The position numbers were made by a program, and so were the translations under genes. Shown piece after piece: positions 2 through 63,398 of a DNA stretch of 64,000 bases (its first letter is position 1; every line of letters starts with the position of its first letter). The DNA is taken from the NCBI GenBank assembly GCA_965249525.1, contig OZ252237.1:1316080-1380079 (forward strand), written 5' to 3'. The DNA comes from a bacterium. GTDB taxonomy: Bacteria > SAR324 > JACQKK01. Below the pieces are notes generated by a model. It saw nothing but the letters and a program-made list of their open reading frames with translations. It had not been told where the DNA came from and searched no databases.

Positions 2-2380
2 TTTGTGGTGTTGTTTAGTCTCATCCTCAGCTTGGGCTTGCTGGTAGACAACGCCATTGTGGTGGTAGAAAACATCTTCCGTCATTTGCAAAGCGGGAAA
101 AGCCATCTTGAAGCAGCACGAACGGGTGTACAAGAAGTCGCCATGCCAGTGTTCACCTCCACCCTCACCACCTTGGCTGCTTTTGGACCCTTGATTTTTA
201 TGCCAGGCATCATCGGTGAGTTCATGTCTTACCTGCCACGCACCTTGATATTCACCCTCAGTGCCTCCTTGGTGGTGGGTTTAATCATCAATCCGGTGAT
301 GTGTTCCCGCTTTATGAAACGTCCACGACAAATTTTTAAGAATAAGGATGAATTAGCCAATCTGCATCAATCTCCTATGCTGCTGCGCTATCGGGGCATG
401 CTGGAATTTTGCCTGCAGCGCCGCAAGCGGGTGCTGCTGGGCGCAGTAGCCGCATTCTTTGGAGTGATTTTTCTGTATGGGGTGCTGGTGTTTTCTCGCA
501 AGGGGGTGGAATTCTTTCCCAAAACGGAACCAGAAAGCGCCACCATCACTGTCACTGCTGCCCCTGGTGCCAGCCTGGATGTATCTGATGGCTTAATGCA
601 AGAGGTGGAACACATGGTGAATTCGCACCAGGACAGCCTGGTAGCCTACCTAACCAATGTGGGGGGTGGTGCGCGCGGCAGCTCGGGCAGCCATGTCAGC
701 CAGTTGACCATGGAATTTCCTGGCTGGAAGAAATGGCTGCTGCGTCCCAGCAAGGTGCTGGAAAATCTGCGTACCAGAATTAAAGAAGTGGCAGGGGCGG
801 ATGTCAATATCCACCAAGAGGCTGCTGGTCCGCCCACTGGCAAGCCTGTGAACATTGAACTCAGCGGCAATAATTTGCAAAAAATGCTGGAAACCTCTGA
901 TGCCATCAAGCGGCGCATCGTAGATGTGCCGGGACTGGTAGACCTGGATGACGACTTTGAACGCGTCCGTCCTGAGGTGCAAGTGCGACTGGATAGAGAA
1001 AAAATCGCCCGTGCTGGCTTTTCCAGCCAAGAGGTAGGACGACTGATACGCACCGCCTTTAATGGACGCACTGTTTCTACCATGCGACGGGGGAAAGAAG
1101 AATTTGATATCGTGGTGCGCCTGGATGAACGCTTTCGCAACGATGTACAGAACATTTCAGACCTCTACCTGTTCACCAAAGCCGGCGAGCAAATAGCTTT
1201 AAGCGAGCTGGCAGAAATCACCACCGCCCCCGCATTGGGTTCCATCCGTCATGTAGAATTGGATCGTGTGATTACCATCTCTGGCGATGCCCAGGGATAT
1301 CCCGGACCCGTGGTGCTGCGCGGGGTTCGCAGCCGTCTTAACAACTTCCCACTGCCTGATAATTTCAACCTCCGCTACACAGGCGAAAACGAAAACCGCG
1401 AAGAAGCCCAAAGCTTCCTGGGAGAAAGCTTCCTGGTGGTGCTGTTTTTAATTTTCATCATTCTGGTGACCCAGTTCAATTCCTTCTATATTCCACTGAT
1501 TATTCTAAGTTCCGTGATGCTCTCCCTGATTGGGGTGTTCTTGGGACTCATCATCCACAACCGCCCATTCAGCATTATGATGGGCGGCATTGGAGTAATC
1601 TCCCTAGCGGGCATCGTGGTGAACAATGCCATTGTGCTGCTGGATTTCATCACCCAGCTGCAGCGCAAGGGCTATCACATTAAAGAAGCGGTACTCCTCA
1701 GCGGAATGGCACGCCTGCGTCCTGTGCTGCTAACCGCCATTACCACCGTACTGGGCTTGCTGCCAGTAGCCATGAGGGCAGAAGTTTCCCTGTTCAGCTG
1801 GCCGTTTATCACCTTTGGCAGCGAAAGCAGCACCTTTTGGGTGCCCATGTCCCTGGCTGTGATTTACGGACTCTCGGCAGCCACCGTATTGACACTGTTT
1901 TTTGTACCCACCCTATACATCACCATGGCGGAATCCACCTGGAGTCTGCGCTCGCTGCGACGGGCGCTCAATCCCCTGGTGCTGCTGGGCTGGCTGATGC
2001 AGCTGGCTGATGCCGACTATCGTCGCCAGTTACGCAGCCGTGTGGGACAGCTGCTGCTACGCCTGGTGGAATTCATCATAGAACTGCCATCATGGATAAA
2101 AAGCCTGCCCCAGCGGGCAAATCCCTATCTTATGTCAGCCCTTCACCAGGCCCAAAAACTCAACACCCAAGCCAGCAAAAAAGAAACCTGGCGGGCACTC
2201 TGGCAGCAATTGCGCCTGCTGCTGCAGCAACTCTTTGATTGGCTGCGACAAAAACTGCAAAAAGGGCTGCAAAAATCCACCGCAGCATACCAGAAAGCTT
2301 CCCACAAACCTCAGCGCAAATCTCAGCGCAAATCTCAGCGCAAACCCCAGCGCAAACCCCAGCAACAAGACAAAGACTAA
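2..2380 (+). CDS. RND efflux transporter permease (AcrB/AcrD/AcrF family), 5'-truncated by window edge
   Basis: GLLVDNAIVVVENI (TM4), GIVVNNAIVLLD (TM10) and RLRPVLLTA motifs; unusually long C-terminal tail ending in RKSQ/RKPQ repeats. Confidence 0.93.
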   Translation, partial: FVVLFSLILSLGLLVDNAIVVVENIFRHLQSGKSHLEAARTGVQEVAMPVFTSTLTTLAAFGPLIFMPGIIGEFMSYLPRTLIFTLSASLVVGLIINPVMCSRFMKRPRQIFKNKDELANLHQSPMLLRYRGMLEFCLQRRKRVLLGAVAAFFGVIFLYGVLVFSRKGVEFFPKTEPESATITVTAAPGASLDVSDGLMQEVEHMVNSHQDSLVAYLTNVGGGARGSSGSHVSQLTMEFPGWKKWLLRPSKVLENLRTRIKEVAGADVNIHQEAAGPPTGKPVNIELSGNNLQKMLETSDAIKRRIVDVPGLVDLDDDFERVRPEVQVRLDREKIARAGFSSQEVGRLIRTAFNGRTVSTMRRGKEEFDIVVRLDERFRNDVQNISDLYLFTKAGEQIALSELAEITTAPALGSIRHVELDRVITISGDAQGYPGPVVLRGVRSRLNNFPLPDNFNLRYTGENENREEAQSFLGESFLVVLFLIFIILVTQFNSFYIPLIILSSVMLSLIGVFLGLIIHNRPFSIMMGGIGVISLAGIVVNNAIVLLDFITQLQRKGYHIKEAVLLSGMARLRPVLLTAITTVLGLLPVAMRAEVSLFSWPFITFGSESSTFWVPMSLAVIYGLSAATVLTLFFVPTLYITMAESTWSLRSLRRALNPLVLLGWLMQLADADYRRQLRSRVGQLLLRLVEFIIELPSWIKSLPQRANPYLMSALHQAQKLNTQASKKETWRALWQQLRLLLQQLFDWLRQKLQKGLQKSTAAYQKASHKPQRKSQRKSQRKPQRKPQQQDKD
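2305..2363 (+). repeat. 12-bp tandem repeat x5 (CAAATCTCAGCG variants) encoding the RND C-terminal tail
   Basis: Direct reading; in frame. Confidence 0.9.
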
Positions 2381-2381
2381 G

Positions 2382-2470
2382 TCCGCTGCCCCGTCATCCG
2401 CTGCCCCGTCATCCGCTGCCCCGTCATCCGCTGCCCCGTCATCTACTGCCCCGTCATCCACTGCCCCGTC
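2382..2470. repeat. 15-bp tandem repeat x6 (TCCGCTGCCCCGTCA)
   Basis: Direct reading; starts just after the RND stop codon. Confidence 0.95.
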
Positions 2471-3259: not shown

Positions 3260-3724
3260 ATGGCAAACTCTCCCAAATCGCCGCCTTCCTCCCCTCCTCC
3301 TCGCTGGCGGGTTCGCATGCCTTTGGGACTTGGCTTGGGGCTGCTGGCAGTCCTGGTGCTGGCCAGCAAACAAACCAACAGCCCCCTTAGAGAAATCTTC
3401 ACCATGGCAGCCATGATCATCGCCTTGTGGACAGCCTTCAGCCTGAACATCCCCCCCAAACGCCCCGAATACAGAGACTCTGTCTTCTTTCCTGGGCCCC
3501 CTGACATACATCCCGATACCCTCCCGTCCGATGACTTCCCGCCCGATGACCTGCAGCCTGATGACCTGCAGCATCCACCCGCTGCTGACACCACTGCTGA
3601 CACCGCTGCTGACACTGCTGCCAGAAAGTCCCCCAAAAAACCTTCCAAAAAACCTTCCAAAAAATCCCCCAAAAGACTTGCTAAAAGAACCCCCACCAAG
3701 CCTCAGCAACACAAAGACAGCTAA
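3260..3724 (+). CDS. Hypothetical membrane protein with low-complexity repeat C-terminus
   Basis: ATG 1 nt after the comF stop; two hydrophobic segments; PDDLQ/ADTA/KKPS repeats. Confidence 0.55.
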   Translation: MANSPKSPPSSPPPRWRVRMPLGLGLGLLAVLVLASKQTNSPLREIFTMAAMIIALWTAFSLNIPPKRPEYRDSVFFPGPPDIHPDTLPSDDFPPDDLQPDDLQHPPAADTTADTAADTAARKSPKKPSKKPSKKSPKRLAKRTPTKPQQHKDS

Positions 3725-5353: not shown

Positions 5354-5968
5354 CTATGGCAGCCAGGGAGTTTCCTGCCTTCTTTTTACTTCGTAGGCTT
5401 TAATGTCAGGAAGGTGTCGCAAGGTGCGGGTGATATCATCCAGCCCTTGCAGGAGGGTCTGTTTGTCTTCTGCTTCCAGTTGGAAGGAGAAGTTTTCTCC
5501 ATCAGCAGTGGTGATGCGATCTGCTGGCAGGTGGATTTCTATGCGCTGGCGGGGATGCTGCTGGATGTATTGGAGCAGAATTTGTTGATCTGGGGAAGAA
5601 ATCTTGGCAGGCAGGAGACCGTTTTTGATAGCGTTGCTGTAGAAGATATCCGCAAAGCTGGTAGCAAGTACGGCGCGAATGCCGTAATCCATCAGGGACC
5701 ACACAGCGTGTTCGCGGCTGGAACCACAGCCGAAGTTGCGCCCAGCAAGCAAGATGCCTGCCTTGCGAAATGCTGGTTGGTTGAGGATGAAATCGGGGTT
5801 GGGCTGGTCTTTGCTGCCATTAAGATAGCGCCAGTCATTAAACAGATGCTGTCCGAATCCCTGGCGTCCGATAGCTTTTAGAAATTGCTTGGGGATGATC
5901 ACGTCGGTATTAATATCGTCGTGATCAAGATAAGCAGCAATAGCTGTATGTGAGATAAAAGGCTTCAT
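5354..5968 (-). CDS. leuD: 3-isopropylmalate dehydratase small subunit
   Basis: DINTDVIIPKQFLK and NFGCGSSREHA motifs; follows leuC. Confidence 0.97.
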   Translation of the reverse strand: MKPFISHTAIAAYLDHDDINTDVIIPKQFLKAIGRQGFGQHLFNDWRYLNGSKDQPNPDFILNQPAFRKAGILLAGRNFGCGSSREHAVWSLMDYGIRAVLATSFADIFYSNAIKNGLLPAKISSPDQQILLQYIQQHPRQRIEIHLPADRITTADGENFSFQLEAEDKQTLLQGLDDITRTLRHLPDIKAYEVKRRQETPWLP

Positions 5969-6063
5969 GGCTGTTACTGTATGGCTGTTACTGTATGGCT
6001 GTTACTGTATGGCTGTTACTGTATGGCTGTTACTGTATGGCTGTTACTGTATGGCTGTTACTG
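5967..6063. repeat. 14-bp tandem repeat x7 (ATGGCTGTTACTGT) filling the leuC-leuD gap
   Basis: Direct reading; the end copy overlaps the leuD start codon. Confidence 0.97.
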
Positions 6064-7572: not shown

Positions 7573-7741
7573 ATTGCCACCAGTTATTGCCACCAGTTAT
7601 TGCCACCAGTTGCCCACAGCATAATTTTCTGTTAGGACACAGTCTGCTTGACAGTATTTCTCAAACAGTATTGTTCAAACAGTATTGTTCAAACATACAA
7701 AAACTAGCCTCCATACAAAAACTAGCCTCCATACAAAAACT
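7573..7741. repeat. Three adjacent short tandem repeats (13-bp ATTGCCACCAGTT x3; 14-bp TCAAACAGTATTGT x2+; 18-bp ATACAAAAACTAGCCTCC x2+)
   Basis: Direct reading of the divergent leuC/EVE intergenic region. Confidence 0.85.
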
Positions 7742-8941: not shown

Positions 8942-10022
8942 TTCCCACTCCCCTGTTCCTGTCGGTACGCAGGCATCCCAGCTATTATCAGCACTTGCCA
9001 ATAAGTACGGACTGCCAGCTGTGGTACGCATAGAGGCTATGCAGGGTGGTGGTTCCACCAAACAATTTTTCCGTCTGTTCTTGCCAGACACCCACCAGCC
9101 AAAGAGCGTGGTGGGGGTGATAGCAGAATCAGCTGCACAGGTGCAGCAAATAGAAATTTGCGCAGGTTTTTTCCACAGCAAGGGTCTACGCATAGCCTGC
9201 CTGCTGGCAAGCAGCCCCGACCCCCCCTGCTACCTGCTGGAAGATTTAGGACAGTGGACGCTGTTTCAACGATTGGTCCAATGGCGCAACACCCCTGATA
9301 AACGATCCCAGCTGCTTCCTGCCCTCTCCAAAACCCTCCGCTGGCTGCCCCAATTCCAAAAACACGGCACCCAAGGCATGCGCACCCAGCAGCTGCCCGT
9401 TGCCCATCACATGAACAAAAAACTTATCCAGCAAGACTGGGGGAACTTCATGCAGTATTTCGTAGCCTCCAACCATCCTGAAATGCTGCCCCCATCCCCA
9501 CAAGTACAAGCAGATATCCAACAGCTGCTGGAACGGCTGCTGGCTTTGGAACATCGCTGGTTCTGCTACCGCGATTTTCAGTGCCGCAATATCATGTGGC
9601 CAGCAGACGATTGCTCGGGCGAACCCGTCTTTATTGACTACCAAGACGGCATGCAGGGACCGCTGGCTTATGATTTGGTGTCCCTGCTGTACAGCCCAGA
9701 TACCGGTCTTAGCCCTGTGCAACGGACACAGCTGACCCAGGTCTACCTGGAGGCCCTGGCTGAAGCAGATTTGCCCTACCCTCCAGATTTTGAAACACAG
9801 CACCATTTGCTGCTGTGGCAGCGACGCACCCAAGCCATCGCAGCCTATGCCCGCATCGCAAAAAGCGGCAAGGCCAATTACCTCAAAAAGCTGCCTCCTG
9901 CTATCGCTGACTTATTGAATCTGCTAGCAGCCGATTGTTTTCCCCCAGGGCTTCCCCATCTGAAAAACTGGCTGCAGCTGCTGCTGCAATACGCTTCAAG
10001 CAAACCTTGGTCCACGCCTTAA
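8931..10022 (+). CDS. Aminoglycoside phosphotransferase-family kinase (AmgK-like)
   Basis: LLEDLG, YRDFQCRNIM, IDYQD and GPLAYDLVSLL motifs. Confidence 0.85.
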   Translation: MAIDSHSPVPVGTQASQLLSALANKYGLPAVVRIEAMQGGGSTKQFFRLFLPDTHQPKSVVGVIAESAAQVQQIEICAGFFHSKGLRIACLLASSPDPPCYLLEDLGQWTLFQRLVQWRNTPDKRSQLLPALSKTLRWLPQFQKHGTQGMRTQQLPVAHHMNKKLIQQDWGNFMQYFVASNHPEMLPPSPQVQADIQQLLERLLALEHRWFCYRDFQCRNIMWPADDCSGEPVFIDYQDGMQGPLAYDLVSLLYSPDTGLSPVQRTQLTQVYLEALAEADLPYPPDFETQHHLLLWQRRTQAIAAYARIAKSGKANYLKKLPPAIADLLNLLAADCFPPGLPHLKNWLQLLLQYASSKPWSTP

Positions 10023-10059
10023 ACCAAGTCTTAAACCAAGTCTTAAACCTCGCCAAGTT

Positions 10060-11691
10060 CTACAAAAACAGCCGATAGACAAGATTATCGGTTTCTTCCT
10101 GATATGCATAATTGATGTCTTGCAGAAACTGTTGAAAATCTTTCTGTTCTGCAGAGGGTATCTCAAATCCCATCAGCACACGGCCATAATCTGCCCCGTG
10201 CATGCGGTAATGAAACAACGAAATATTCCAAGAAGGATGCATCTCCAGCAAAAATTTCATCAGCGCACCCGGGCGTTCTGGAAACTGAAAGCTGTAGATT
10301 CGTTCATTTTTAGACAAGGTGCTTTTCCCACCCACCATATGACGGATATGTGTTTTTGCCAATTCGTTGTCGGTGAGGTCGGTGTGCTGGTAGCCGTGGC
10401 TATCCAAGGCTTGGGAAAACTGCTGTCGTTCCTGAGCATCGTCCAGCCCAATACCGATAAAAATATGCGCCTGATTCCTATCTGCCAAGCGGTAGTTAAA
10501 TTCGGTAATGGCATGGCTGCCCACCACTTTTTCACAGAAATTGCGCAGCGCCTGGCGTCTTTCCGGAAGGGTCACCGCAAATAGGGCTTCTCGCTGTTCG
10601 CCTGTAAGGGTGCGCTCCGCCACAAATTGAAAGCGGTCAAAGTTCATGTTGGCACCAGAGTGAATGGCTGCCACCTTCATGCCCTTGCTTTCTGTACGCT
10701 GCATGTATTTGTTGACGCCTGCCAGACCCAGCGCTCCTGAAGGTTCTGCAATGCTGCGGGTTTCTTCATAAATCCACTTGATAGCAGAACAAATTTCATC
10801 CGTGCTTACCGCTATCACGCCATCCACATATTTGGCAGCACAAGCAAATGTGTAGCGACCAGCCTGGGCAACCGCCACGCCGTCGGCAAAACGACCCACC
10901 TGGGCCAACTTTACCCGTCTGCCTGCTTTCAACGCCTGCTGCATGCAATTGCTGTCCTCAGGTTCCACCCCAAATACCTGCACCTTGGGCGATATCTGCT
11001 TAATAAACGCCCCAATGCCAGCAATAAGACCGCCACCGCCCACAGGCACAAACACCGCCTGGACATCCGGCAGCTGCTGAATCACCTCCAGGCCCACTGT
11101 ACTTTGACCTGCAATCACCAAAGGGTCATCAAAAGGATGAATAAACACCGACCCCTTCTTTTCACACAATTGCTCACAAAATACTGCTGCCTCCTCAAAA
11201 CTATCGCCCTGCAGCATCACCTCCGCCCCTAAGGAACGCACCACATTGACCTTAATCTTGGGAGTGGTACTGGGCATGACCACAGTGGCTGCTATCCCCA
11301 AATGCCGTGCCGACATCGCCACCCCCTGGGCATGATTCCCTGCAGATACACACATAACCCCGCTTGCCCGTTCTTTTGCCGACAAACTGGCAATCTTGTT
11401 GTACGCACCACGAACCTTAAAGGAAAAACCAGGCTGTAAATCCTCCCGCTTTAACCATACATCGCAGCCCCAACGCTGGCTTAAATTGGGCAGCCGTTCC
11501 AAGGGGGTACGGCGCGCCAAATCATATACGCGACTTAACAATACATCGCGCAAGAAATTCTTGCCAAAATCTGCCTTGCCAAGATCTGCATTGCCAAAAT
11601 CTGCCTTGCTAAAATCTGCCTTGCCAAAATCTGCCTTGCCAAAATCTGCCTGCCCTTCCAAGCCAACCTGTTTCTTAGGTTTTGCAGACAT
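10060..11691 (-). CDS. ilvA: Threonine ammonia-lyase, biosynthetic
   Basis: KREDLQPGFSFKVRGA, SAGNHAQG, two C-terminal ACT-like domains (FPERPGAL, SLFHYR); start taken at MSAKP. Confidence 0.97.
   Translation of the reverse strand: MSAKPKKQVGLEGQADFGKADFGKADFSKADFGNADLGKADFGKNFLRDVLLSRVYDLARRTPLERLPNLSQRWGCDVWLKREDLQPGFSFKVRGAYNKIASLSAKERASGVMCVSAGNHAQGVAMSARHLGIAATVVMPSTTPKIKVNVVRSLGAEVMLQGDSFEEAAVFCEQLCEKKGSVFIHPFDDPLVIAGQSTVGLEVIQQLPDVQAVFVPVGGGGLIAGIGAFIKQISPKVQVFGVEPEDSNCMQQALKAGRRVKLAQVGRFADGVAVAQAGRYTFACAAKYVDGVIAVSTDEICSAIKWIYEETRSIAEPSGALGLAGVNKYMQRTESKGMKVAAIHSGANMNFDRFQFVAERTLTGEQREALFAVTLPERRQALRNFCEKVVGSHAITEFNYRLADRNQAHIFIGIGLDDAQERQQFSQALDSHGYQHTDLTDNELAKTHIRHMVGGKSTLSKNERIYSFQFPERPGALMKFLLEMHPSWNISLFHYRMHGADYGRVLMGFEIPSAEQKDFQQFLQDINYAYQEETDNLVYRLFL
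11561..11650 (-). repeat. 15-bp in-frame tandem repeat x6 encoding (GKADF)n in the IlvA N-terminus
   Basis: Direct reading. Confidence 0.93.
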
Positions 11692-11872: not shown

Positions 11873-11931
11873 TGCTTATCTCTCTGCTTATCTCTCTGCT
11901 TATCTCTCTGCTTATCTCTCTGCTTATCTCT
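11873..11931. repeat. 12-bp tandem repeat x5 (TGCTTATCTCTC)
   Basis: Direct reading. Confidence 0.93.
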
Positions 11932-12006
11932 TCTGCCTCTCACCACAAAACCACCCTCTGAAACCCTCTTTTGGCATGCTGGGTAACCATATCGCAAAAA
12001 TCACCC

Positions 12007-14259: not shown

Positions 14260-14469
14260 AGGAGATCTTTATGAGAAGTCAATTATTTAATGCAGAGGTT
14301 TTTGTTGAGGATATACTTATAGCATACACATTTATAGCACACACATTTGCTGAAAAGCATGGCTTTGGCTGCCCTCAAACATTCAGCCTGCGAGCTCCTC
14401 ACCAGCGCAATTGGACAAAAAACTTGGGACAAAAACCTTGGGACAAAAACCATGGGATAAAAACCATGC

Positions 14470-16026: not shown

Positions 16027-16653
16027 TTAAGACGCATCCCCCAACTCAATCAGTATATCCACTTCCTTAGGCAAACTATCCTTGGCTGCCCGCAATATCA
16101 ATTGCTCTCCTTGCACCGCCTCAGCTATCAACAATGCAGCCCGCAAAAAACCTGCCCTATACCGCACCAACTGCTTCTTATGCCTAAGCTTCCCCTCTGA
16201 TAATCCCGTTACGCGCACTTGCATCCCCACCCGCTTGTCCAATGAAACCGAAGCCTCTCGCTCCAATAATAACTGCAGCTTTAACGTCCGTTCACGACTG
16301 CCCCTAGTACCCAACACCCTCACCCGCACCTCTGTCGGCTGATACGGACGCTTCAACAACACGCCACCGCTGCTGGCAGGCACCCCATATGCCAGCCCTT
16401 GTCCTCCCAAAGCCTCCCCTACCAACGGAGAAGCCCGATAACCCTTAATATGTGCTTGCTCCTTCTCCTGCTTCCCCTTATCCTGCTTCCCCTTATCCTG
16501 ACCCCAAACCACAGAACCCCACATCACAACCACTACTATCCATATCCCCATGGTTAGGGCAACCACACACACCCGTTGCAAGATAGTCGCCGCCTTTATC
16601 TCACGGAAACTCTCATGACCTGATATTCCACAGATACTCTTTGCTCGTTTCAT
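16027..16653 (-). CDS. Membrane-anchored protein, possible LytR C-terminal-like domain
   Basis: TM segment then VRVRVLG...VRYRAGFLRAALLIA...VDILIELG pattern resembling LytR_C; start uncertain. Confidence 0.5.
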   Translation of the reverse strand: MKRAKSICGISGHESFREIKAATILQRVCVVALTMGIWIVVVVMWGSVVWGQDKGKQDKGKQEKEQAHIKGYRASPLVGEALGGQGLAYGVPASSGGVLLKRPYQPTEVRVRVLGTRGSRERTLKLQLLLEREASVSLDKRVGMQVRVTGLSEGKLRHKKQLVRYRAGFLRAALLIAEAVQGEQLILRAAKDSLPKEVDILIELGDAS

Positions 16654-17049
16654 CACGCACTCCCTGTTTTGTTGTTGAATCGTACAGCTGTAAAGACAAG
16701 CATCATCCATGCCTCCCAGCCTTAGCTTCATAAAGAACAAGCAGCCATTAGACTCAAAAGGGAAAACAAGCTTAGAACCCTTCTATCTTAGCGCAATTTC
16801 CTGTTTTCCTACAGCACCTGCACCAAAACACCTGCACCAAAACACCAGCCCTGCAACCATACCCACTTGTCCTATACCAATTCTGGACACAGCTCCGCCA
16901 GAATCCAGATAGCCTGCAATATGCACAGAACACGCCAATTTGCCATCAGAAAGCATTCAGGTAATAATAACCCAAAGTAGCTTGTACTAGTCCATCCTTT
17001 ACTATTGATGGCTTGCATCAAGATCCATCCCAGACCCTTGTCCGATGCC

Positions 17050-18422: not shown

Positions 18423-18891
18423 CTGGTGTAAGGGGTTTGCTGGAAGCGGCTGGTAGGGGGCTTGCCTGGTAAGGGGTTTGCCTGGTAAGGGCTGGTAAGG
18501 GGTTTGCTGGAAGCGGCTGGTAGGGGGCTTGCCTGGTAAGGGGTTTGCCTGGTAAGGGGTTTGCCTGGTAAGGGCTGGTAAGGGGTTTGCTGGAAGCGGC
18601 TGGTAGGGGGCTTGCCTGGTAAGGGGTTTGCCTGGTAAGGGGTTTGCCTGGTAAGGGCTGGTAAGGGGTTTGCTGGAAGCGGCTGGTAGGGGGGCTTGCA
18701 TGGTAAAGGCTGGTAAGGGGTTTGCTGGAAGCGGCTGGTAGGGGGGCTTGCATGGTAAAGGCTGGTAAGGGGTTTGCTGGAAGCGGCTGGTAGGGGGGCT
18801 TGCATGGTAAAGGCTGGTAAGGGGTTTGCTGGAAGCGGCTGGTAGGGGGGCTTGCCTGGTAAAGGCTGGCAAGGGCTGGTAAGGGGTTTGC
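18423..18891. repeat. Composite G-rich satellite (~470 bp) built from CTGG-initiated 10-17-bp modules
   Basis: 7 copies of CTGGAAGCGG spaced 67, 83, 83, 52, 52, 52 bp apart, interleaved with CTGGTAAGGGGTTTG(C) and CTGGTAGGGGGCTTGC. Confidence 0.97.
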
Positions 18892-18971: not shown

Positions 18972-20828
18972 TTGGATGCGCACACGATTGCATTGGTGAA
19001 AGAACGCGCTGATATTGCTCAGATCATCGCTGAGCATGTACAGCTTCGCCCCAGTGGGCAGGGGTATAAGGGATTGTGTCCATTTCATCAGGAGAAGACG
19101 CCCTCATTTACAGTGAATGTCCAGCGTGGGTTTTTCCATTGTTTTGGCTGTGGCAAGGGTGGGAGTGTGGTGGATTTCGTCATGGCACGGCAGGGGATGG
19201 AATTTGGTGAGGCCTTGGCTTGGCTGGCGGAGCGGGTGGGGGTGGAGTTGAAGCCAGGACAGGGAGGGATTCGTTGTGTACAAGCCTTAAAGTTGGCGAC
19301 TGAGTTTTATCATCAGCAGTTGATGCATGCTGCCCAGGGGGAGTCTTTCCGTGCCTATTTGCGCTCCCGTGGTTTTGAGGAGGCAGACTGGTCCAGTTTT
19401 CAACTGGGTGCTGCCCTGAATGATTGGCAAGGTCTGATCCATCAACTGCAAAGCAAGATAGACATAGAGACGCTGTTGAAGGCAGGACTTGTAGGCAAGG
19501 GGAAAAGCGGGCGGGCTTATGATTGGATGCGCGGGCGGGTGGTGTTTCCTATTCAAGATGCCAGCGGTCATACCTTGGGCTTGGGCGGACGCCTGCTGGA
19601 AGACGGCCCTGGCCAATCCAAATACTTGAACACCCCAGAGACGGTGTATTATCGCAAGCATCGGGTGCTGTTTGGCTTGCCCCAAGCCCTGGCTGCTTGG
19701 CGAGCATCCAAGTGCGCCTTGTTGGTGGAAGGATATCTGGATGTACTGCGCATGCACCAGCATGGATTCAGCCAAGCGGTAGCCGCCTGCGGGACCTCGC
19801 TTACGGGGGATCATGTGGCATTACTCAAACGCCACAACCAGGAAGTGATTCTGCTGTTTGACGGCGATTCGGCTGGTATGCGCGCAGTGATGCGTTCTGT
19901 TCCCTTGTTTTTGGAACACAATCTGGAAGCGCGGGTAGCCTTGCTGCCTAAGGGCTTAGACCCGGATGATCTGCTGGTGCAACAAGGGACACAAGCCTTG
20001 CAAAATTGTCTGGACGATGCCAAACCACTGTTAGAACATCTGGCTTTTGCCACCTTGCAGCAATTTCCTGCATCTGTACAAGGGAAGCAGCAAGCCCTGG
20101 CAGCCTTGGCAGACAATCTACAAGCAGCCAAAACCGCCACCCGCGCAGTAGCCATCCGTCATTTGGCTGACTTGCTGGGCATTGACCCCGCCAGTGTCCT
20201 ATCTCAGCTAGCAGCAAGCACCTCTCCCAAGCGCACCCTGACAGCAGCATCCCGCACCTCCTCCTCTGCTTTCTCCTCTGCTTCCTCCTCTGCTTCCTCC
20301 CCCGCCATCTCCCACAGAGAAAAACGCATCCTGGCACTGCTGGCATGGCATCCCTCCCTGGCAGATATCGCACGCACACTCTTTCAGCCCGGCGACTTCA
20401 GTTCAGACCTCGCCCGCAATCTCTTTGGGCAACTCACTTCCTCCGCTGCTTCACCTCAGATTCCCTCATCCCCGCAGCAAGCAGCATCCTCGCAAGAAGC
20501 CACCTTATTGCGCTCCCTGCAAGCAGAAAAACCCCTTCATGTACACGCCGCCAAAGACCCCAAAGCTGCCTTGCAGGCAGAAACCTATTATCTGAAACGC
20601 CCCAGACTGCTTGAATTACGCCGCGCCTGGCAGCAAGCCCTCAACACCCCTCAAGAAGAATTGGCTCAGCAACGCTGGCGTAAAGCACAACAGGCACTGC
20701 AAATCCTGAAACCTCCCAGATATACCTACCAACCGCGTGAAGAAATGCGCCTAAAATCTCCCGACCAAGCCATCTCTTCCCTGGCTGCCTCCAGCCCCGC
20801 ACCTCCGCATCCCCCTGCCGACCAATAA
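18972..20828 (+). CDS. dnaG: DNA primase
   Basis: CPFH..CFGC zinc finger, KYLNTPET, TOPRIM EGYLD and FDGDSAG; TTG start after GGAGG at 18961. Confidence 0.97.
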   Translation: MDAHTIALVKERADIAQIIAEHVQLRPSGQGYKGLCPFHQEKTPSFTVNVQRGFFHCFGCGKGGSVVDFVMARQGMEFGEALAWLAERVGVELKPGQGGIRCVQALKLATEFYHQQLMHAAQGESFRAYLRSRGFEEADWSSFQLGAALNDWQGLIHQLQSKIDIETLLKAGLVGKGKSGRAYDWMRGRVVFPIQDASGHTLGLGGRLLEDGPGQSKYLNTPETVYYRKHRVLFGLPQALAAWRASKCALLVEGYLDVLRMHQHGFSQAVAACGTSLTGDHVALLKRHNQEVILLFDGDSAGMRAVMRSVPLFLEHNLEARVALLPKGLDPDDLLVQQGTQALQNCLDDAKPLLEHLAFATLQQFPASVQGKQQALAALADNLQAAKTATRAVAIRHLADLLGIDPASVLSQLAASTSPKRTLTAASRTSSSAFSSASSSASSPAISHREKRILALLAWHPSLADIARTLFQPGDFSSDLARNLFGQLTSSAASPQIPSSPQQAASSQEATLLRSLQAEKPLHVHAAKDPKAALQAETYYLKRPRLLELRRAWQQALNTPQEELAQQRWRKAQQALQILKPPRYTYQPREEMRLKSPDQAISSLAASSPAPPHPPADQ

Positions 20829-40393: not shown

Positions 40394-40435
40394 CTTAAAC
40401 CCGACTCCTTCTCCTGGTCATTTTCTCCTGGTCTC

Positions 40436-45000: not shown

Positions 45001-45052
45001 GGACAAACGGGTGTCTCTAGCATCTGTTGTTTTTATAAGTGCTGTGCCTGGT

Positions 45053-45224
45053 GCATGCAATGCCGAGCATGAGAAGCCGAGCATGAAATGTCGTGCATGA
45101 GATGCCGAGCATGAAATGTCGTGCATGAGAAGCCGAGCATGAAATGTCGTGCATGAGATGCCGAGCATGAAATGTCGTGCATGAAATGTCGTGCATGAGA
45201 TGCCGAGCATGAAATGTCGTGCAT
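45053..45224. repeat. 14-bp tandem array x12 mostly alternating GCATGAAATGTCGT and GCATGAGAWGCCGA
   Basis: Direct reading. Confidence 0.97.
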
Positions 45225-47319: not shown

Positions 47320-47326
47320 GCAGCCA

Positions 47327-47745
47327 TGCCTATGCAATGCCTGTTCAATGCCTGTTCAATGCCTATGCAATGCCTATGCAATTGTATCCCGCAAGGGCAC
47401 TCCTGAGTGGCAAAAAAACCATCGCAGAAAAACCATCGCAGAAAAACCATCGCAGAAAAACCATCGCAAAAAAACCATCGCAAAAAAACCATCGCAGAAA
47501 CCAAATGCAAGCCTGAGACGCAAAAACCCCTGCATTGCAGCGCACATCCCAGGTGTGCAGAAAGCAGGTGTGCAGAAAGCAGGTGTGCAGAAAGCAGTGG
47601 TTGAAATGCAGAGGATGCTTTCTGCCTTGCTGCTTGTGTGAGGGGTATCACTTGACTCAACCCCGCCCCAGCTTTTAGGGTTACCAAGAGTGTTTGGGCT
47701 GGCATCTGCTGGCTGGCATCTGCTGGCTGGCATCTGCTGGCTGGC
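47327..47745. repeat. Cluster of short tandem repeats (11-bp TGCCTATGCAA/TGCCTGTTCAA x5; 14-bp AAAAACCATCGCAG x6; 15-bp CAGGTGTGCAGAAAG x3; 14-bp GGCTGGCATCTGCT x3)
   Basis: Direct reading. Confidence 0.9.
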
Positions 47746-47823
47746 GAATGTTGGCTTCTAAGTACCCTCACCAGCAGCACTCCCGCTTGAATCACCCTTA
47801 AAAATCTCCCCCAGGAAGCGATT

Positions 47824-49206
47824 TTGATAGATCACACCAACGCACCCATGCGAGCCGTATTGTTGGGAATACAATTGCCCCTGGTATCGGCTGCACAGCT
47901 GCAGGAATCGCTGGATGAGTTGAGGCAATTGTTGGTGGGATTGGAATGCTGCTTGGTGGGACAAATCCACCAACAGCGCCCTGTCAAACACCCCACCAAT
48001 GTATTTGGCGAGGGCAAGCTGCAAGAAATCAAGCATTTGGTGCATGCCAAGGGTGCGGATTTAGCAGTGTTTGACGGCAGCCTTTCGCCGGCACAGGGAC
48101 GCAAGCTGGAAAGTGTGCTGGAGGTGATGGTGGCTGACCGCACCCAGGTGATTTTAGATATTTTCAGCAAAAATGCCCGCACCCGTGAAGCCCATAAACA
48201 AGTAGAATTGGCTAGGCTGGAATATACACTGCCGCGCTTGGTAGGTATGTGGGCGCACCTGGACCGAGAACGGGGAGGCATCGCAGGAGGCAGGGGTGCA
48301 GGGGAAAAACAAATTGATCTAGACCGCACCCTGTTGCGCAGCCGCATTGCGCGCTTACGAAAAGAACTGCACAAGCTGGACACCCGCCGCCGCACCCATG
48401 TAAAAAAACGCCGCAGCTGCTTAAAAGTCTCCCTAGTGGGCTATACCAATGCAGGAAAATCCACCCTGATGAACCGCTTGACCAATGCCCACCTCCTCAC
48501 ACAAGACCGCTTGTTCGCCACTTTGGACTCCACCACCCGCCAACTGGACGCCCAAAACCCTCCGCCCATTCTCATCTCTGACACCGTCGGTTTTATCCGC
48601 AATCTGCCTCACCAGCTGGTGGCATCCTTCCGTTCCACCTTGCAGGTGGTGATAGATGCCGATTTGCTGCTGCATGTGGTGGACATCAGCCATCCCAACT
48701 TCCAAGAACAAATGGCAGTAACCAAAGACACCCTCAAAGAGATTGGCGCAGATACCATCCCCATGCTGGTGGTATTCAACAAAACCGATAAAACCTCCAA
48801 CACGCAAAAGCTGCTTGCCAAGCAAATGGTTCCCCAGGCTGTTTTCACCAGCGCCATCAACCAAGACACCGACATCCGAAAACGGGACATCCGAAAACAG
48901 GACCTCAGAAAACGCATCTCTGATTTCTTCAGCCAAAGCATGCGCACCGCAAAACTCACCCTCCCCTGCACCCAAGAAGACTTGTACCTGCTCCACCGCT
49001 GGAGTCACGTACAACACATCCATCAGGTTGCCCACCACAACCAAGAGGTGGTTTTTAGCTGCACCCCAGACAACCTGGCACGTATTCTTGCGCATTTTGG
49101 ACCCGTTGAATTGCTTCCCAACCATGCCGCAGCCCACACCCCCCGTCACACCACAACCAATCCCCCCAAGGCAGCACAGCTGGAAGAACGCCAATACGCG
49201 CCCTAG
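47824..49206 (+). CDS. hflX: GTPase HflX
   Basis: DRTQVILDIF, QVELARLEY.LPRL, GYTNAGKSTL, LFATLD, DTVGF and FNKTD motifs. Confidence 0.96.
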   Translation: MIDHTNAPMRAVLLGIQLPLVSAAQLQESLDELRQLLVGLECCLVGQIHQQRPVKHPTNVFGEGKLQEIKHLVHAKGADLAVFDGSLSPAQGRKLESVLEVMVADRTQVILDIFSKNARTREAHKQVELARLEYTLPRLVGMWAHLDRERGGIAGGRGAGEKQIDLDRTLLRSRIARLRKELHKLDTRRRTHVKKRRSCLKVSLVGYTNAGKSTLMNRLTNAHLLTQDRLFATLDSTTRQLDAQNPPPILISDTVGFIRNLPHQLVASFRSTLQVVIDADLLLHVVDISHPNFQEQMAVTKDTLKEIGADTIPMLVVFNKTDKTSNTQKLLAKQMVPQAVFTSAINQDTDIRKRDIRKQDLRKRISDFFSQSMRTAKLTLPCTQEDLYLLHRWSHVQHIHQVAHHNQEVVFSCTPDNLARILAHFGPVELLPNHAAAHTPRHTTTNPPKAAQLEERQYAP

Positions 49207-51237: not shown

Positions 51238-51312
51238 TTGAAGAGGGGGAGGGGCTAAGCCTTATGGCGGGGTTTTGGCAGAACTGGCTGGCTGGGGAGG
51301 TTCTTTTTCAGC

Positions 51313-52146
51313 TTATTTTTTTGCAGCCTGTTTTTTTGCAGCCTGTTTTTTTGCAGCCTGTTTTTTTGCGGGCTGGTTTTTTGCGGGCTGGTCTGCTGCC
51401 GATTCTGCCTGCGGGGTATCACTGGAAGGGGCAGCTTTTTGCGCTGCGGCAGCTGTTTCTTCCGCTGGGGGCTGAGCTTTTGGCTGTGGAGACTCCACCC
51501 CAGGTCCAGCAACAGGGGGGATGTCCTCCAAGGTGTATTTAAAAATCTCCACTATCCCGCCATTAGCACCAGGCACAGCCCCTCTCAGCAGCAGCAGATT
51601 TTTCTCAGGAGCAACTTTTTCCACCCACAAGTTGTGTACGCTGATGCGTTTGTTGCCCATGTGTCCTGGGAGGCGTTTCCCCTTAAACACCCGTCCTGGG
51701 AAGGTGTGGTTGCCGATGGATCCAGGGGTGCGATGAAATCGGGAACCATGTGAGGCAGGACCGCCTGCGAATCCGTGGCGTTTCAGTACTCCTTGAAAGC
51801 CGCGCCCTTTGGAAATCCCAGAGACACGCACGTATTCACCTTCATTAAAAACACGCACATCCCAGCTTTGTCCTGGCTGTGCTTTGGAAATATCGGCGAC
51901 AGGGTACTCCTTCAAGTAGCGCATGGGGGGCAGCTGCTTGAAATGTCCCTTGAGCGGGCGTTTGATGAGCTTTTGCTTTTTGATGGGTTGATAACCCACT
52001 TGCAGTGCATCGTAGCCCTCTTTTTGCTTGGTTTTCACTTGTACCACCACCACCGGTCCTACTTCTAGTACGGTTATGGGCACGCATCTGCCATCTTTAC
52101 GAAACAGCTGAGTCATTCCTACTTTGCGTCCCAGCATACCTATCAT
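51313..52146 (-). CDS. rplC: 50S ribosomal protein L3 with Ala/Lys-rich C-terminal extension
   Basis: KVGMTQ, SKGRGFQG, HGS.FHR.PGSIG, PGRVFKG, GHMG and GAVPG motifs. Confidence 0.97.
   Translation of the reverse strand: MIGMLGRKVGMTQLFRKDGRCVPITVLEVGPVVVVQVKTKQKEGYDALQVGYQPIKKQKLIKRPLKGHFKQLPPMRYLKEYPVADISKAQPGQSWDVRVFNEGEYVRVSGISKGRGFQGVLKRHGFAGGPASHGSRFHRTPGSIGNHTFPGRVFKGKRLPGHMGNKRISVHNLWVEKVAPEKNLLLLRGAVPGANGGIVEIFKYTLEDIPPVAGPGVESPQPKAQPPAEETAAAAQKAAPSSDTPQAESAADQPAKNQPAKKQAAKKQAAKKQAAKK
51316..51390 (-). repeat. 15-bp in-frame repeat x5 encoding QPAK(N/K)/QAAKK at the L3 C-terminus
   Basis: Direct reading. Confidence 0.9.
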
Positions 52147-55749: not shown

Positions 55750-56008
55750 CTTTTATCTCCTGCTAACTGTGTTCTACTGCAATGTTTTTTGCTGCAATGT
55801 TTTTTGCTAAAGGTAAAAAAACGCCCCCTTTATTCTTATCCTTCCCAAACTTTTTTTGCCAGCATTGCTGCAATAATCTCCTTGTTCAAGATTCTCCATG
55901 ATTGACATTCTGTCCGTATTAGCCTAATTATATTTTAATCCCCTGCAATCTGGCAGGGCATCCGTAGCGCAAAAGGTTTTTTCTTAAACAGCCAGAGGAT
56001 AAGTTGTT

Positions 56009-56515
56009 GTGTCATTAAGCATTCGTATGGCTCGCGGGGGCAACAAACACCGACCATTTTTCCGCATTGTAGTGCAAGAACGTTCAGCACCCAGAGACGG
56101 TCGTTTTGTTGAACGTCTTGGCAGTTACAACCCTTTGTTGGCAGACAACAAAAGCCAGATCAACATGGAACGCGCCATCTACTGGATGGATGTCGGCGCC
56201 CAGCCCAGTCAACGTGTCAGCCGTCTGTTGGACTGGCACGGAGTCAAGCATGCCCGCATCCTGCCTGTGGGCACCCGCAAGCACAAACCCAAGTCTGAAG
56301 CAGCTTTGGCTTCCGCAATGGAAGCCCCAACCCAAGCAGCAGCCCCACTCAAAGCAGCAGCCCCGCCCCAAGCAGCAGCCCCGCAAGAAACTCAGCCTGA
56401 GACGGCAACAGCAGCAGAAAAAGCTGCTGAGGAGCAACCAGCCAGCCAGCAAGCCCCAGCAAAGCAGGAAGCCCCAGCTGCTTCCAAAGAAGCCCCAGCT
56501 GTTTCCACCGATTAA
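56009..56515 (+). CDS. rpsP: 30S ribosomal protein S16 with Ala/Pro/Gln-rich tail
   Basis: IRMARGG...PFFRIVV, RDGRFVE.LGSYNP and GAQPS motifs. Confidence 0.96.
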   Translation: MSLSIRMARGGNKHRPFFRIVVQERSAPRDGRFVERLGSYNPLLADNKSQINMERAIYWMDVGAQPSQRVSRLLDWHGVKHARILPVGTRKHKPKSEAALASAMEAPTQAAAPLKAAAPPQAAAPQETQPETATAAEKAAEEQPASQQAPAKQEAPAASKEAPAVSTD

Positions 56516-59369: not shown

Positions 59370-59448
59370 ACTGAACAAACAGCCCTGGCTTTCATGCTTG
59401 ATGCAAAAAATAAAGAAAACATAAAGAAAACATAAAGAAAGACTGACC

Positions 59449-61525: not shown

Positions 61526-62326
61526 CTACCTTAATATTTTAAAAGCCCGAACAGCCTGCCCGTATGTTACTATTTGAGAACTGGCTTCTTTCTTTTCTGG
61601 TATTTTGTTGGTCAAAATATCAAAAACACATCCAGCATTAAGCCTGAACTTCATTTGCCGATAATGCCTTTTACTGTCATGACGATCCTCAATCTCTCCA
61701 ATGTTTATAGAACAAAGATGGGAACGAAAAGTAACCTTTTGGTCGTCCATCTGCCTCGGATTTCTTGCCCTTGAATTTTGGAGCGTCACATTAGCCGCAA
61801 GTGCCTTAACCACATCGTCTTTATGGAAAATGTGAAAAATTTTATCTGTTATATCCTCGTTTGCCCTGCCCAAAAACATACTCAGGTATTGTGCGCTGCC
61901 ACCATCAAACAACGCTTTATCAAGAAAAGCCTTGAAGGTTTTTGGCTTCTGTAGTTCCGCAAGAAGTTCCCGCATCTGCGGCTGAAGTTTCTGCTTGGCT
62001 AGTATCTTATTCGCTTCATAATCAGCTCGATTAACAGGATAAGCATCAATACAAGCAATCATGATATCAGCAACATTTCCAAGCCCTTGAAAGATAGAGT
62101 CCTTCTCTAAACGACTACGACCATAGAGAAATATCTGCCACCAAGTACCTGACTTTACCGAATGGAAACAACTACTTGCATCTAGTACATCTTTTTTGTC
62201 ATTAGGATGACCTTTTACCTCGCCTCCAATCAAAGAGGCAAAATGTTTTTCGTTCAGATGACCAGCGAGTTTCACTTCTTGGGCATGTTGAGAAGTCATA
62301 GCCCTTTTCCGTGACATATTAATCAT
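61526..62326 (-). CDS. Putative type II restriction endonuclease
   Basis: GH.NE...KKDV.D....SVK PD-(D/E)xK-like core; overlaps the MTase stop; AT-rich. Confidence 0.6.
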   Translation of the reverse strand: MINMSRKRAMTSQHAQEVKLAGHLNEKHFASLIGGEVKGHPNDKKDVLDASSCFHSVKSGTWWQIFLYGRSRLEKDSIFQGLGNVADIMIACIDAYPVNRADYEANKILAKQKLQPQMRELLAELQKPKTFKAFLDKALFDGGSAQYLSMFLGRANEDITDKIFHIFHKDDVVKALAANVTLQNSRARNPRQMDDQKVTFRSHLCSINIGEIEDRHDSKRHYRQMKFRLNAGCVFDILTNKIPEKKEASSQIVTYGQAVRAFKILR

Positions 62327-63398
62327 CCTTCACAATCAGCAGTTCGTGGGACTTTTTCACATGGTGATGGGTGCCATTCTCTATGCGATTTTTACCGATG
62401 CGGGTTTCCCCCTGACCCAGGGTATACTGCCATTGAACTTCTACGATGCGAAAGTCCCGATACCAGTCACGCACCGTCTGGCAGTCATTATAAGAAAGAA
62501 TAAAGCCCCCCCTTCTTGAGTGCAGCAGATCGCACAGCTTGGCATGGTCAAAGCCGTTGTGGTGGACAGGAAAATTGCGCTGGGGATAAATACCGCGAAA
62601 CATTTTGCTGTCTTCTCCTAAATAATAGGGAGGGTCACAGTATAAGAAATCGCCCTCATGTGCGGGAATGGACTTCTCAAAGCCTGCACGCTTCACCCTA
62701 AGCTGACCCGCAGAAAAATCACGCACGCGCTGCAGCAGTTTTTGGTAGCGCCTTTTGCAGTTATAGATTTTGGACATCCAGCCCAAAAATCCAGGACCAT
62801 AAGACAAATTGTAGTTAAAATAATAATGCGCTGCCAGGTCTTCTTTGCTCAGCAGTCTCTGCTTTAACCAATGGGCTTTTAAGCGCGCTTTCACCTGCTG
62901 ATAGCACTCCAAGGTGGGCTGCCAGCATGACAGCCTGCGGAATAATGTATAGGGCTTTTTCAGCTGCATCTGCCAGTAGCAAGTGAGAATATTAAACACA
63001 TCATAAGCCAACACCTCCATGCCCAACTCTTTGGCGCAGGCTATCTCCAGGCTGCCCCCTCCCAGAAAGGGTGATACCAAGCGGGTAAGATGACGGGGCA
63101 GCTGTTGAACAATGTGTCCCACAGCCAGACTTTTACCGCCGGCATAACGAATGGGCGAGCCCACATAGCGCTTGTAGCCCCTATGGTTGGGGCGTTTCAG
63201 CGAACGCAGGAAGTCTTCGGGACTTTTGACAGTCGGAGAAAAGACACTGGCAATCGGAGAAGATCCATTGCCAGTCGGAGAAGAACCATTGGCGGTTGGA
63301 GAAGATCCATTGACGGTCTCCAACAAAGACTCCCATGACACATTAAAAGGGGCAGCTGTTGTTGCTGGGCGTATTTCTGGGGCAGTCCGTTGTTTCAT
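62319..63398 (-). CDS. DNA adenine methyltransferase (Dam/D12 alpha class)
   Basis: RYAGGKS, motif I SPFLGGGS, motif IV YCDPPY, LSYND; N-terminal NGSSPT repeats. Confidence 0.93.
   Translation of the reverse strand: MKQRTAPEIRPATTAAPFNVSWESLLETVNGSSPTANGSSPTGNGSSPIASVFSPTVKSPEDFLRSLKRPNHRGYKRYVGSPIRYAGGKSLAVGHIVQQLPRHLTRLVSPFLGGGSLEIACAKELGMEVLAYDVFNILTCYWQMQLKKPYTLFRRLSCWQPTLECYQQVKARLKAHWLKQRLLSKEDLAAHYYFNYNLSYGPGFLGWMSKIYNCKRRYQKLLQRVRDFSAGQLRVKRAGFEKSIPAHEGDFLYCDPPYYLGEDSKMFRGIYPQRNFPVHHNGFDHAKLCDLLHSRRGGFILSYNDCQTVRDWYRDFRIVEVQWQYTLGQGETRIGKNRIENGTHHHVKKSHELLIVKDD
63235..63316 (-). repeat. 21-bp in-frame repeat x4 (degenerate) in the MTase N-terminus
   Basis: GGAGAAGATCCATTGCCAGTC variants. 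Confidence 0.8.

Follow-up and report, generated by a model that had tools for sequence, protein, structure and literature searches.

Locus-unique 12-15 bp tandem arrays in GC3-rich domains of a SAR324 chromosome

What kind of process fills a bacterial chromosome with short tandem arrays that bear no resemblance to one another? The question is raised by a 64,000-nucleotide stretch of a SAR324 genome (the window; G000:C1:1316080-1380079), in which a reading of the letters alone had noticed unrelated arrays in most intergenic gaps. We analysed these arrays in the window, in the genome that carries it (G000; one contig, 1,724,560 bp, 49.8% GC), in a second genome of the same genus (G001; 1.60 Mb, 45.4% GC, ~60-65% protein identity to G000) and in more distant relatives. 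The arrays are a real, active, genus-level mutational phenomenon of the kind known from the repeats of Borg elements. Feature coordinates are window positions unless a genome is given.

Array lengths and placement

Tandem Repeats Finder (TRF) at a score of at least 30 returned 80 rows in the window, which were hand-merged to 63 non-overlapping arrays, 46 of them with a period of 11-15. All 20 array positions listed by the sequence-only reading coincide with TRF arrays. Across G000, at a score of at least 50, TRF gave 572 rows and ~455 arrays, with periods of 11 (12 rows), 12 (89), 13 (55), 14 (51), 15 (112) and 16 (17). A count of exact tandem duplications (at least two copies), which uses no score threshold, yielded the following numbers by unit length: 10:18, 11:23, 12:91, 13:57, 14:43, 15:87, 16:13, 17:0 and 18:8. 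The 12-15 bp classes comprise 278 events, and an order-3 Markov simulation of the whole genome contained no exact tandem duplication at any unit length of 12 or more. Because the score-free count peaks there and the simulation is empty, the 12-15 bp peak is real, narrow and no effect of the detector. The first description had already given units of mostly 12-15 bp.

Unit length does not follow unit GC (Spearman -0.02 and -0.08 in the two genomes). This argues against a pairing-energy threshold, so that a thermodynamic ruler was rejected, and for a length that is set in nucleotides. Units of 1-4 bp, the class sensitive to mismatch repair, are not the expanded class in G000. Only 74 of 13,130 pairs of same-length units lie within two mismatches of each other, vs 8-9 for shuffled units, and the listed pairs are mostly found in paralogous gene copies; the claim that units share no sequence is thereby upheld. 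Unrelated units, the 12-15 bp peak and the missing GC correlation together support the proposal of a sequence-independent local duplication with a preferred length.

Many arrays are perfect (100% match; 90 of 345 with a period of 11-17 in G000, 84 of 381 in G001), which indicates that the process is recent or still active. Isolated perfect two-copy arrays mostly carry a partial extra copy of 1-14 nt (73 of 96 in G000, 83 of 114 in G001), and the partial lengths are roughly uniform. No extra base accompanies the other 23 of 96 and 31 of 114, where our own calculation for blunt duplication in random flanks expects ~56%. Mismatches are denser in edge units than in the array interior (per unit, 0.85 v 0.67 for G000 and 2.25 v 1.70 for G001), and the variant units are not polarised along the fork direction (32 v 40; 68 v 68). 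Diverged edges without polarity are the pattern expected from slippage-type turnover. Inverted partners of arrays occur at control level (8 of 345 vs 7), so the arrays are not hairpin-type heptamer repeats. No Rfam family matched the window in a gathering search, and a CRISPR-type layout is not seen there, as array copies are directly adjacent, with no unique spacers.

Gene calls were crude (longest open reading frames (ORFs) scored by codon usage; 1,359 genes in G000), and ORF starts may be over-extended. On these calls, 22 of the 40 window gaps of at least 30 bp hold an array, so that the statement that most gaps do so stands narrowly; arrays cover 1,986 of 9,614 gap bases (20.7%). Across G000, 183 arrays are intergenic, 67 straddle a gene end and 203 lie in coding sequences (CDSs). 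The period spectra of intergenic arrays (11:8, 12:25, 13:28, 14:38, 15:43, 16:12, 17:7) and CDS arrays (12:54, 13:9, 14:1, 15:63, 16:3, 18:10, 21:15) differ, and we conclude that selection filters the arrays, as the sequence-only reading had proposed. Its rule that only multiples of 3 occur inside CDSs holds for 161 G000 arrays with a period of up to 30 and fails for 22, mostly located in the first deciles of ORFs with possibly over-extended starts; one exception in the window is a 13-bp array (1989-2013). G001 has 341 CDS arrays, with nine non-multiples of 3 among those with a period of 8-24. AT-rich restriction-modification genes had been thought to lack arrays; this is true of two of the three methyltransferase loci in the window, and the third ORF (62319-63398) contains a 21-bp array (63226-63318).

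CDS arrays favour protein termini: counts by protein decile in G000 are 49, 27, 20, 16, 13, 11, 12, 20, 9 and 26, the first being inflated by possibly over-extended starts. Aligned to their G001 orthologs, 49% of CDS-array residues have no counterpart, vs 12% of those in control segments; of 138 arrays, 64 are unaligned over half their length or more. By this alignment the CDS arrays appear to be lineage-specific insertions. In the encoded peptides P, A, T, S, D and K are over-represented, whereas Y, C, W and I are under-represented. No gap type is preferred in the 1.00-1.48 Mb region of G000, where 19 of 44 convergent, 28 of 53 divergent and 77 of 184 co-directional gaps hold arrays.

On the sense strand of G000, A reaches 0.320 v 0.263 in intergenic arrays (z 4.4) and 0.277 v 0.245 in CDS arrays. 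In G001 A is not enriched and only T is depleted; T is depleted in both genomes. Candidate rules of sequence or strand did not hold. A/T runs are enriched in units of G000 (24% v 14%) and not of G001 (14% v 17%), so a run is not required. Units oriented to the leading strand lack a near-universal trinucleotide that could mark a primase site (the best, AAG, occurs in 42% vs 26%), and CTG/CAG is not enriched in intergenic units. Asymmetry between replication strands was likewise rejected, given a weak purine excess (z 2.0), the lack of polarity of variant units and equal array counts beside co-oriented and head-on genes (59 v 63).

Relatives, strains and chromosome domains

G001 carries 645 arrays with the same spectrum (12:100, 13:54, 14:52, 15:116, 16:27, 17:17, 18:43), and its intergenic arrays peak at 13-14 bp, those of G000 at 13-15 bp. 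Arrays with a period of 11-17 number 200 per Mb in G000 and 238 in G001. The relatives are eight genomes of the same family or order, of which 100-200 kb each were sampled; apart from G008 and G009 the assemblies are fragmented, so that repeats may be missing. The densities are 105 (G009), 45 (G008), 35 (G005), 20 (G004 and G026), 10 (G018) and 0 (G019 and G020). The density of the genus (200-238 per Mb) is thus unmatched among these relatives (0-105). The G009 arrays are mostly weak, imperfect and two-copy, and G008 is rich in repeats of 20-280 bp. We conclude that the array trait belongs to the small-genome genus and recurs, less strongly, in one relative from the family.

G008 has many 40-280-bp tandem repeats of its own and, on contig C5, long perfect arrays of 11 bp x57.6 (160418-161051), 24 bp x12 (174356-174642) and 22 bp x13 (186810-187094; positions in the joined sample). 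Proneness to tandem repeats may therefore be family-wide, with a differing spectrum.

Strains were compared through Logan contigs from one study (three runs on two samples, which may be the source of the genome) and from run X4 of another study; window stretches without X3 or X4 contig coverage are uninformative either way. The short-read contigs of the three runs show 0 differences from the window and span the arrays at 30162, 32876, 37856, 39129, 42028 and 48871. They break inside longer arrays only, as de Bruijn contigs must. The outcomes that the sequence-only reading had named as refuting it are thus not seen, since relatives differ in density and contigs obtained independently contain the arrays. 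The X4 strain differs by ~2-3% in genes, and five of the six listed loose ends of its contigs lie in or at arrays (one strain, contigs only). At 40420 it lacks the 14-bp array and has instead duplicated another unit, of 8 bp, which the window carries in single copy. A 12-bp insertion in X4 behind window position 49174 is no obvious copy of neighbouring window sequence and was set aside. A search of metagenome contigs for close strains gave only six distant relatives, at 29-32% identity.

The arrays are distributed in domains along the G000 chromosome. Counts per 40 kb are ~0 at 0-240, 600-760 and 1,520-1,724 kb and 10-34 at 240-600 and 1,000-1,480 kb, and the window sits in the densest part. 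Gaps with arrays number 124 of 281 at 1.00-1.48 Mb vs 1 of 134 at 0-0.24 Mb. Array density follows GC at third codon positions (GC3) of long ORFs, with a Spearman coefficient of 0.80 in G000 (87 bins of 20 kb) and 0.60 in G001; for overall GC the coefficient in G000 is 0.73. It does not track GC skew in G000 (-0.02 signed, -0.01 absolute), so the suggestion that arrays and skew domains share a cause is not supported. The fraction of genes with an array rises with the tercile of regional GC3 (0.06-0.10, 0.21-0.28, 0.49-0.58), and a gene's own deviation from regional GC3 is not predictive.

GC3 shifts gradually in G000, over 100-300 kb. The dinucleotide-signature distance between array-poor and array-rich chunks is 48, vs 25 and 32 within the two classes and 79-103 to G001; this modest difference argues against a chimeric assembly. 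The skew minimum and dnaA put the origin of G000 near 0 kb and that of G001 near 605 kb, and its surroundings are array-free in the former and array-rich in the latter. By domain class, 338 and 335 orthologs lie in rich domains of one genome only, 122 are poor in both and 109 rich in both, counts that reflect a few large blocks and carry no statistical test. The array domains are positional and lineage-specific, not tied to gene content.

A symmetric arrangement about the origin was also considered; the mirror scan gives four equivalent axes, with which symmetry is compatible and by which it is not demonstrated, and G001 lacks the pattern. Faster protein evolution in rich domains was rejected too, as the trend in median identity (64.1, 62.1, 62.3, 60.4%) is small and confounded by repeat insertions. 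The GC skew of G000 divides cleanly into two replichores, yet its genes are not biased toward either orientation relative to replication, 657 of 1,359 being co-oriented. Effects of replication and of transcription are thus separable here, unlike in Borgs.

Likeness to known repeats and candidate mechanisms

The closest likeness is to Borgs, elements of Ca. Methanoperedens that carry tandem repeats (TRs), including amino acid TRs (aaTRs) (Schoelmerich et al. 2023, PLoS Biol, PMC9879509). Statements on Borgs here refer to the covered parts of that paper and its S14 Table, which leave the mechanism by which such repeats originate unsettled. Repeats of both kinds are pervasive, mostly perfect, head-to-tail and unique to their locus, being drawn from local sequence. 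About half lie in ORFs and have a unit length divisible by 3, and intergenic unit lengths are mostly not divisible. Further shared traits are flanking partial repeats, rarity in related genomes, and repeat peptides in which P, T and K abound while W, C and F are rare. Arrays that differ between close strains, known from Borgs, may be a shared trait too, judging by the X4 contigs. Borgs have 50-76 TR regions per 0.66-1.09 Mb, occupying 0.63-1.02% of the sequence. By the Borg criterion (perfect, at least three units, at least 50 nt), G001 has 123 regions (77 per Mb, 0.66%) and G000 has 63 (37 per Mb, 0.29%), which places G001 within the Borg range and G000 below it.

The differences are equally clear. 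The host here is not an archaeal extrachromosomal element but the chromosome of a bacterium, in two species that belong to the same genus; that of G000 carries dnaA, ribosomal-protein and lipopolysaccharide genes. Units are shorter and far narrower in range, at 12-15 bp; in the Black Borg rows covered they range over 9-54 bp, and intergenic ones often measure 17-20 bp. The strong A bias of Borgs is weak here and inconsistent between G000 and G001. Finally, the arrays are confined to GC3-rich domains, a pattern not met in the Borg text covered. The arrays thus behave like Borg TRs and are, by their host, no member of that group.

Other known systems are less similar. Classical slipped-strand repeats share the change of copy number by slipped-strand mispairing and the in-frame protein repeats, but concern few loci per genome, typically surface or virulence genes, whereas here ~200-240 arrays per Mb extend to housekeeping genes and about half of the gaps in rich domains. 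The heptamer or hairpin repeats of cyanobacteria and Xanthomonas (STRR/LSSR) also fill intergenic spacers with short tandem units; theirs are 7-9 nt long with a shared motif and often form inverted pairs, in contrast to the unrelated 12-15 nt units here. Furthermore, bacterial chromosomes show wave-like, origin-symmetric variation in mutation rate, according to the portions drawn on here of Dillon et al. 2018 (PMC6106087) and Niccum et al. 2019 (PMC6606806). The array domains resemble these waves as a regional regime over hundreds of kb, with the array-free zone of G000 centred on dnaA and the skew origin. The waves concern base substitutions in laboratory lines, whereas the present domains concern tandem duplications and GC3 and are not conserved relative to the origin in G001.

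A literature search, with subscription journals outside its reach, found no description of such arrays in SAR324 or of a 12-15 bp spectrum in bacteria. New here are the narrow, GC-independent unit length and the confinement to GC3-rich domains that do not coincide between two species. The arrays constrain how Borg-type repeats can originate: the step length is sharply defined whatever the GC content, none of the obvious repair genes is broken, and arrays switch together with synonymous GC at places that differ by species. They also remodel the ends of essential proteins (S16, L3, SelA, DnaG and HflX), which bears on annotation and on the origin of disordered segments.

The genes of repair and replication offer no ready cause. 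Genes polA, mutS and mutL were found in 31 of the 31 genomes searched and are full length in G000 and G001. The PolA 5'-nuclease motifs are conserved, and the FYE and Walker A motifs of MutS and the DQHAxxExxxxE and CPHGRP endonuclease motifs of MutL are intact. MutS family scores (859.8 bits in G000, 800.2 in G001) are below those of most full-length relatives. The genes recJ and xseA (ExoVII) and an RNase HI gene are present. Both genomes keep only the lower-scoring of two UvrD/Rep-like paralogues that most relatives have (G000:C1:365683-367635); loss of the higher-scoring one was rejected as a cause, as array-poor G005 and G018 share it. With repair genes intact, Ku not found and arrays not tracking skew, the mechanisms offered by the sequence-only reading, including a deficit of mismatch repair or of Pol I, are unsupported.

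We favour, by a little over even chance, a reading in which these are locus-autonomous repeats of the Borg kind, generated by length-ruled local duplication together with slippage and selection, and modulated by region. A short tract of local sequence would be duplicated in tandem, in a step fixed in nucleotides at 12-15, rarely 11 or 16-18. Since base-pairing energy does not set the length, a protein or complex would. The range of bacterial MutS excludes loops of 12-15 nt; the resulting loop would be too large for MutS to see, and the duplication would be fixed. Once at least two copies exist, they would gain and lose units through ordinary slipped-strand mispairing. Selection would purge frame-breaking arrays; those in frame would survive chiefly at the ends of proteins and as peptides of a hydrophilic, disordered type. 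The duplication would act only in domains hundreds of kb long with high GC3, pointing to a modulating positional factor. Our preferred candidate would be a displaced flap of fixed length that is re-ligated during gap filling or Okazaki-fragment maturation; bacterial tracts of similar length include primase primers (~10-14 nt) and UvrABC excision patches (12-13 nt). The data themselves establish the array pattern and its length ruler, the filtering by selection, the restriction to the lineage, the domains and the soundness of the obvious repair genes; we infer the order of events, de novo duplication followed by slippage, as well as the step set by an enzyme.

Several observations weigh against this account. 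Duplication of a fixed tract in one step does not predict uniform partial flanking copies, which need secondary deletions or out-of-phase events. Rising stability of misalignment multiplied by falling opportunity could mimic a ruler, although the absent GC effect argues otherwise. Biases in composition are weak and inconsistent, with enrichment of A and AA on the sense strand in G000 only. No enzyme or gene difference among those inventoried explains the trait: RecQ, the DnaQ/RNase T family and Pol IV were not found in G000 or G001 and are missing from array-poor relatives too. The comparison with relatives has its own weakness, as six of the eight genomes are fragmented and may under-assemble repeats, and the near-complete G008 and G009 carry other or sparser tandem repeats.

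We speculate, at low probability, that a single positional process in this genus yields both the 12-15 nt duplication and GC-biased substitution. Such a process could be a repair or replication mode that is active only while some parts of the chromosome are copied, for example alternative gap filling or ligation of fixed-length flaps, and each misfire would leave a duplication of one patch length. As the active zone has moved between G000 and G001, judging by the ortholog classes (338/335 vs 122/109), it would be set by chromosome position or replication timing rather than by gene content. If this were true, the length of the patches or flaps formed in a DNA transaction could be read directly from the genomes of this genus, which would also serve as a bacterial model for the origin of Borg-type repeats.

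It is unlikely, in our judgement, that the arrays are instead explained by a selected function, with intergenic arrays serving as contingency or regulatory elements (promoter spacing, RNA leaders), in-frame arrays making disordered segments, and both length window and domains reflecting selection. In-frame arrays do encode disorder-type peptides, as has been argued for aaTRs in the covered parts of the Borg paper (PMC9879509); arrays abut start and stop codons (e.g. 5967-6063, 20823-20882 and 42028), and T is depleted on the sense strand of both genomes. However, convergent, divergent and co-directional gaps are equally populated, and units are unrelated and non-orthologous between species. 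Moreover, whether an array is present depends on a regional variable, one that sets synonymous GC3 as well, rather than on the identity of the gene, and selection for function leaves the length window common to coding and non-coding arrays unexplained.

More doubtful still are recombination-hot domains, in which GC-biased gene conversion would raise GC3 and recombination-linked synthesis or unequal exchange would make or expand arrays. The correlation of arrays with GC3 in two genomes and the many gene-scale tandem duplicates and mosaic paralogues of G000 fit this idea, and recombination rate varies along bacterial genomes (PMC11879095, as far as that paper is covered here). Unequal exchange, however, predicts no 12-15 nt unit, and the homogenised array interiors fit slippage equally well.

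Footprints of staggered breaks or of transposition are improbable. Nicks 12-15 nt apart that are filled and rejoined by end joining, or elements that insert and excise with a target-site duplication, would supply a sequence-independent ruler through their fixed stagger, and fill-in of staggered breaks had been among the first suggestions. Ku was found in none of the five genomes searched, and G000 has no dispersed repeat families resembling insertion sequences, its large repeats being tandem gene duplicates (searches for LigD, Cas1 and transposase families were not part of this). Arrays mostly end in partial copies rather than blunt whole units, and those with many copies would still require slippage.

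Very little speaks for an artefact, in which faulty assembly or a mosaic made of two populations would have produced the arrays or the rich and poor domains. The poor-rich dinucleotide distance does exceed both within-class values, and the genome is of the uncultured, metagenome type; against this, the independent short-read contigs hold the arrays without a difference, G001 has the same arrays and the same coupling to GC3, GC3 changes gradually, the poor-rich distance stays well below that to G001, and contamination of G000 is estimated at 0.21%. Slippage in a cell deficient in mismatch repair or Pol I, which repeat abundance and the lowish MutS scores might suggest, has next to no probability, given full-length mutS, mutL and polA with intact motifs and units of 1-4 bp that are not expanded.

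Arrays and neighbouring genes of the window

Table 1. Tandem arrays of the window, all detected by TRF; x gives the copy number.
Position	Array	Setting	Strand	Remark
1989-2013	13 bp x1.9	in non-homologous C-terminal tail of RND permease ORF		window exception to multiple-of-3 rule
2305..2470	two adjacent arrays, 12 bp x4.9 and 15 bp x5.9	at and just past end of RND permease ORF (5-2380)		scores 90, 157
3522..3695	cluster of 15 bp x3, 12 bp x3.6, 12/24 bp x3.8			
5967..6063	perfect 14 bp x6.9	fills entire leuC-leuD spacer		100% matches, score 194
7573..7741	three unrelated neighbours, 13 bp x3, 14 bp x3.2, 18 bp x2.7			
10018..10049	perfect 12 bp x2.7	intergenic		
11560..11651	15 bp x6.1	ilvA N-terminal extension or leader		family match from residue 66
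11873..11936	12 bp x5.2	intergenic		
14317..14465	15 bp x2.1 and 14 bp x3.8	intergenic		
16461..16500	15 bp x2.7	in-frame in ORF		
16815..16846	perfect 14 bp x2.3	intergenic		
18450..18885	large G-rich compound array, 10/16-bp sub-units	upstream of dnaG		higher-order periods 52, 83, 104
20259..20312	12/24 bp	in-frame in dnaG	+	
20823..20882	12 bp x5	spans dnaG stop codon (20828)		
26016..26061	perfect 14 bp x3.3	between aspS and heptosyltransferase gene		
27100..27238	9 bp x3.8 and 13/39 bp x8	same gap		
28586..28632	15 bp x3.1	gene end		
30162..30196	13 bp x2.7	intergenic		spanned by independent contigs, 0 differences
32251..32375	15 bp x8.3	in-frame in ORF 32067-32585	+	X4 contig diverges from window here
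32876..32925	13 bp x3.8			X4 has one variant unit, then exits array
37856..38068	13 bp x2.8 and 23 bp x6.1	between fabG and fabD		
39129..39191	15 bp x4.2	intergenic		
40407..40730	four unrelated arrays (14, 12, 15, 12 bp)	fill divergent era-hisB gap		
42028..42079	12/24 bp	in-frame, begins 4 nt after selA start codon	+	
45051..45224	14 bp x12.3			28- and 42-bp higher-order structure
47326..47756	four unrelated arrays (11, 14, 15, 14 bp)	gap before hflX		contigs break here
48871..48914	15 bp x2.9	in-frame in hflX	+	
51300..51384	15 bp x5.7	C-terminal end of L3 gene	-	277 aa; family match ends near residue 201
55777..55808	perfect 15 bp x2.1	upstream of efp		
56323..56507	18-bp, 8-bp and 21-bp arrays	form C-terminal extension of ribosomal protein S16	+	
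59405..59440	11 bp x3.3	intergenic		
63226..63318	21/42 bp	Dam-like methyltransferase ORF (62319-63398)	-	

The window arrays are collected in Table 1. The compound array upstream of dnaG alone causes a local positive reversal of GC skew (+0.25 in the 18-20 kb bin). In the RND permease ORF the family match ends near residue 645 of 791 (~nt 1940), leaving a tail of ~146 aa that contains the 13-bp array and a 12-bp array (2305-2363); repeat events may have given rise to this tail or shifted its frame. The ribosomal proteins L3 (51313-52146, 277 aa) and S16 (56009-56515, 168 aa) have C-terminal extensions made of 15-, 18- and 21-bp repeats, and the L3 gene is solitary, outside its usual ribosomal-protein operon context.

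Duplication at larger scale is also seen. Gene-scale tandem duplicates are frequent in G000, at 78-97% identity (e.g. genome positions 1198539-1203675, 920170-923392, 698599-701693 and 1252-1264 kb). One 15-bp array has been inherited by at least seven paralogous copies in G000 (541943 and six places in 1251939-1262788). G001:C1:261288-271494 holds four C-terminal RNase H fragments with internal stops, ~3.3 kb apart and near an intact gene at 255696, which look like a tandemly reiterated segment.

Two further ORFs of the window have composite architectures. ORF 58404-59369 fuses RNase HII (residues 1-200) with a YraN-type nuclease domain (residues 204-320). ORF 52645-53865 encodes an adenine methyltransferase in an AT-rich setting (41% GC bin), and its C-terminal HNH region gives matches to the HNH models of Cas9/IscB, so that the ORF probably represents a restriction-modification fusion.

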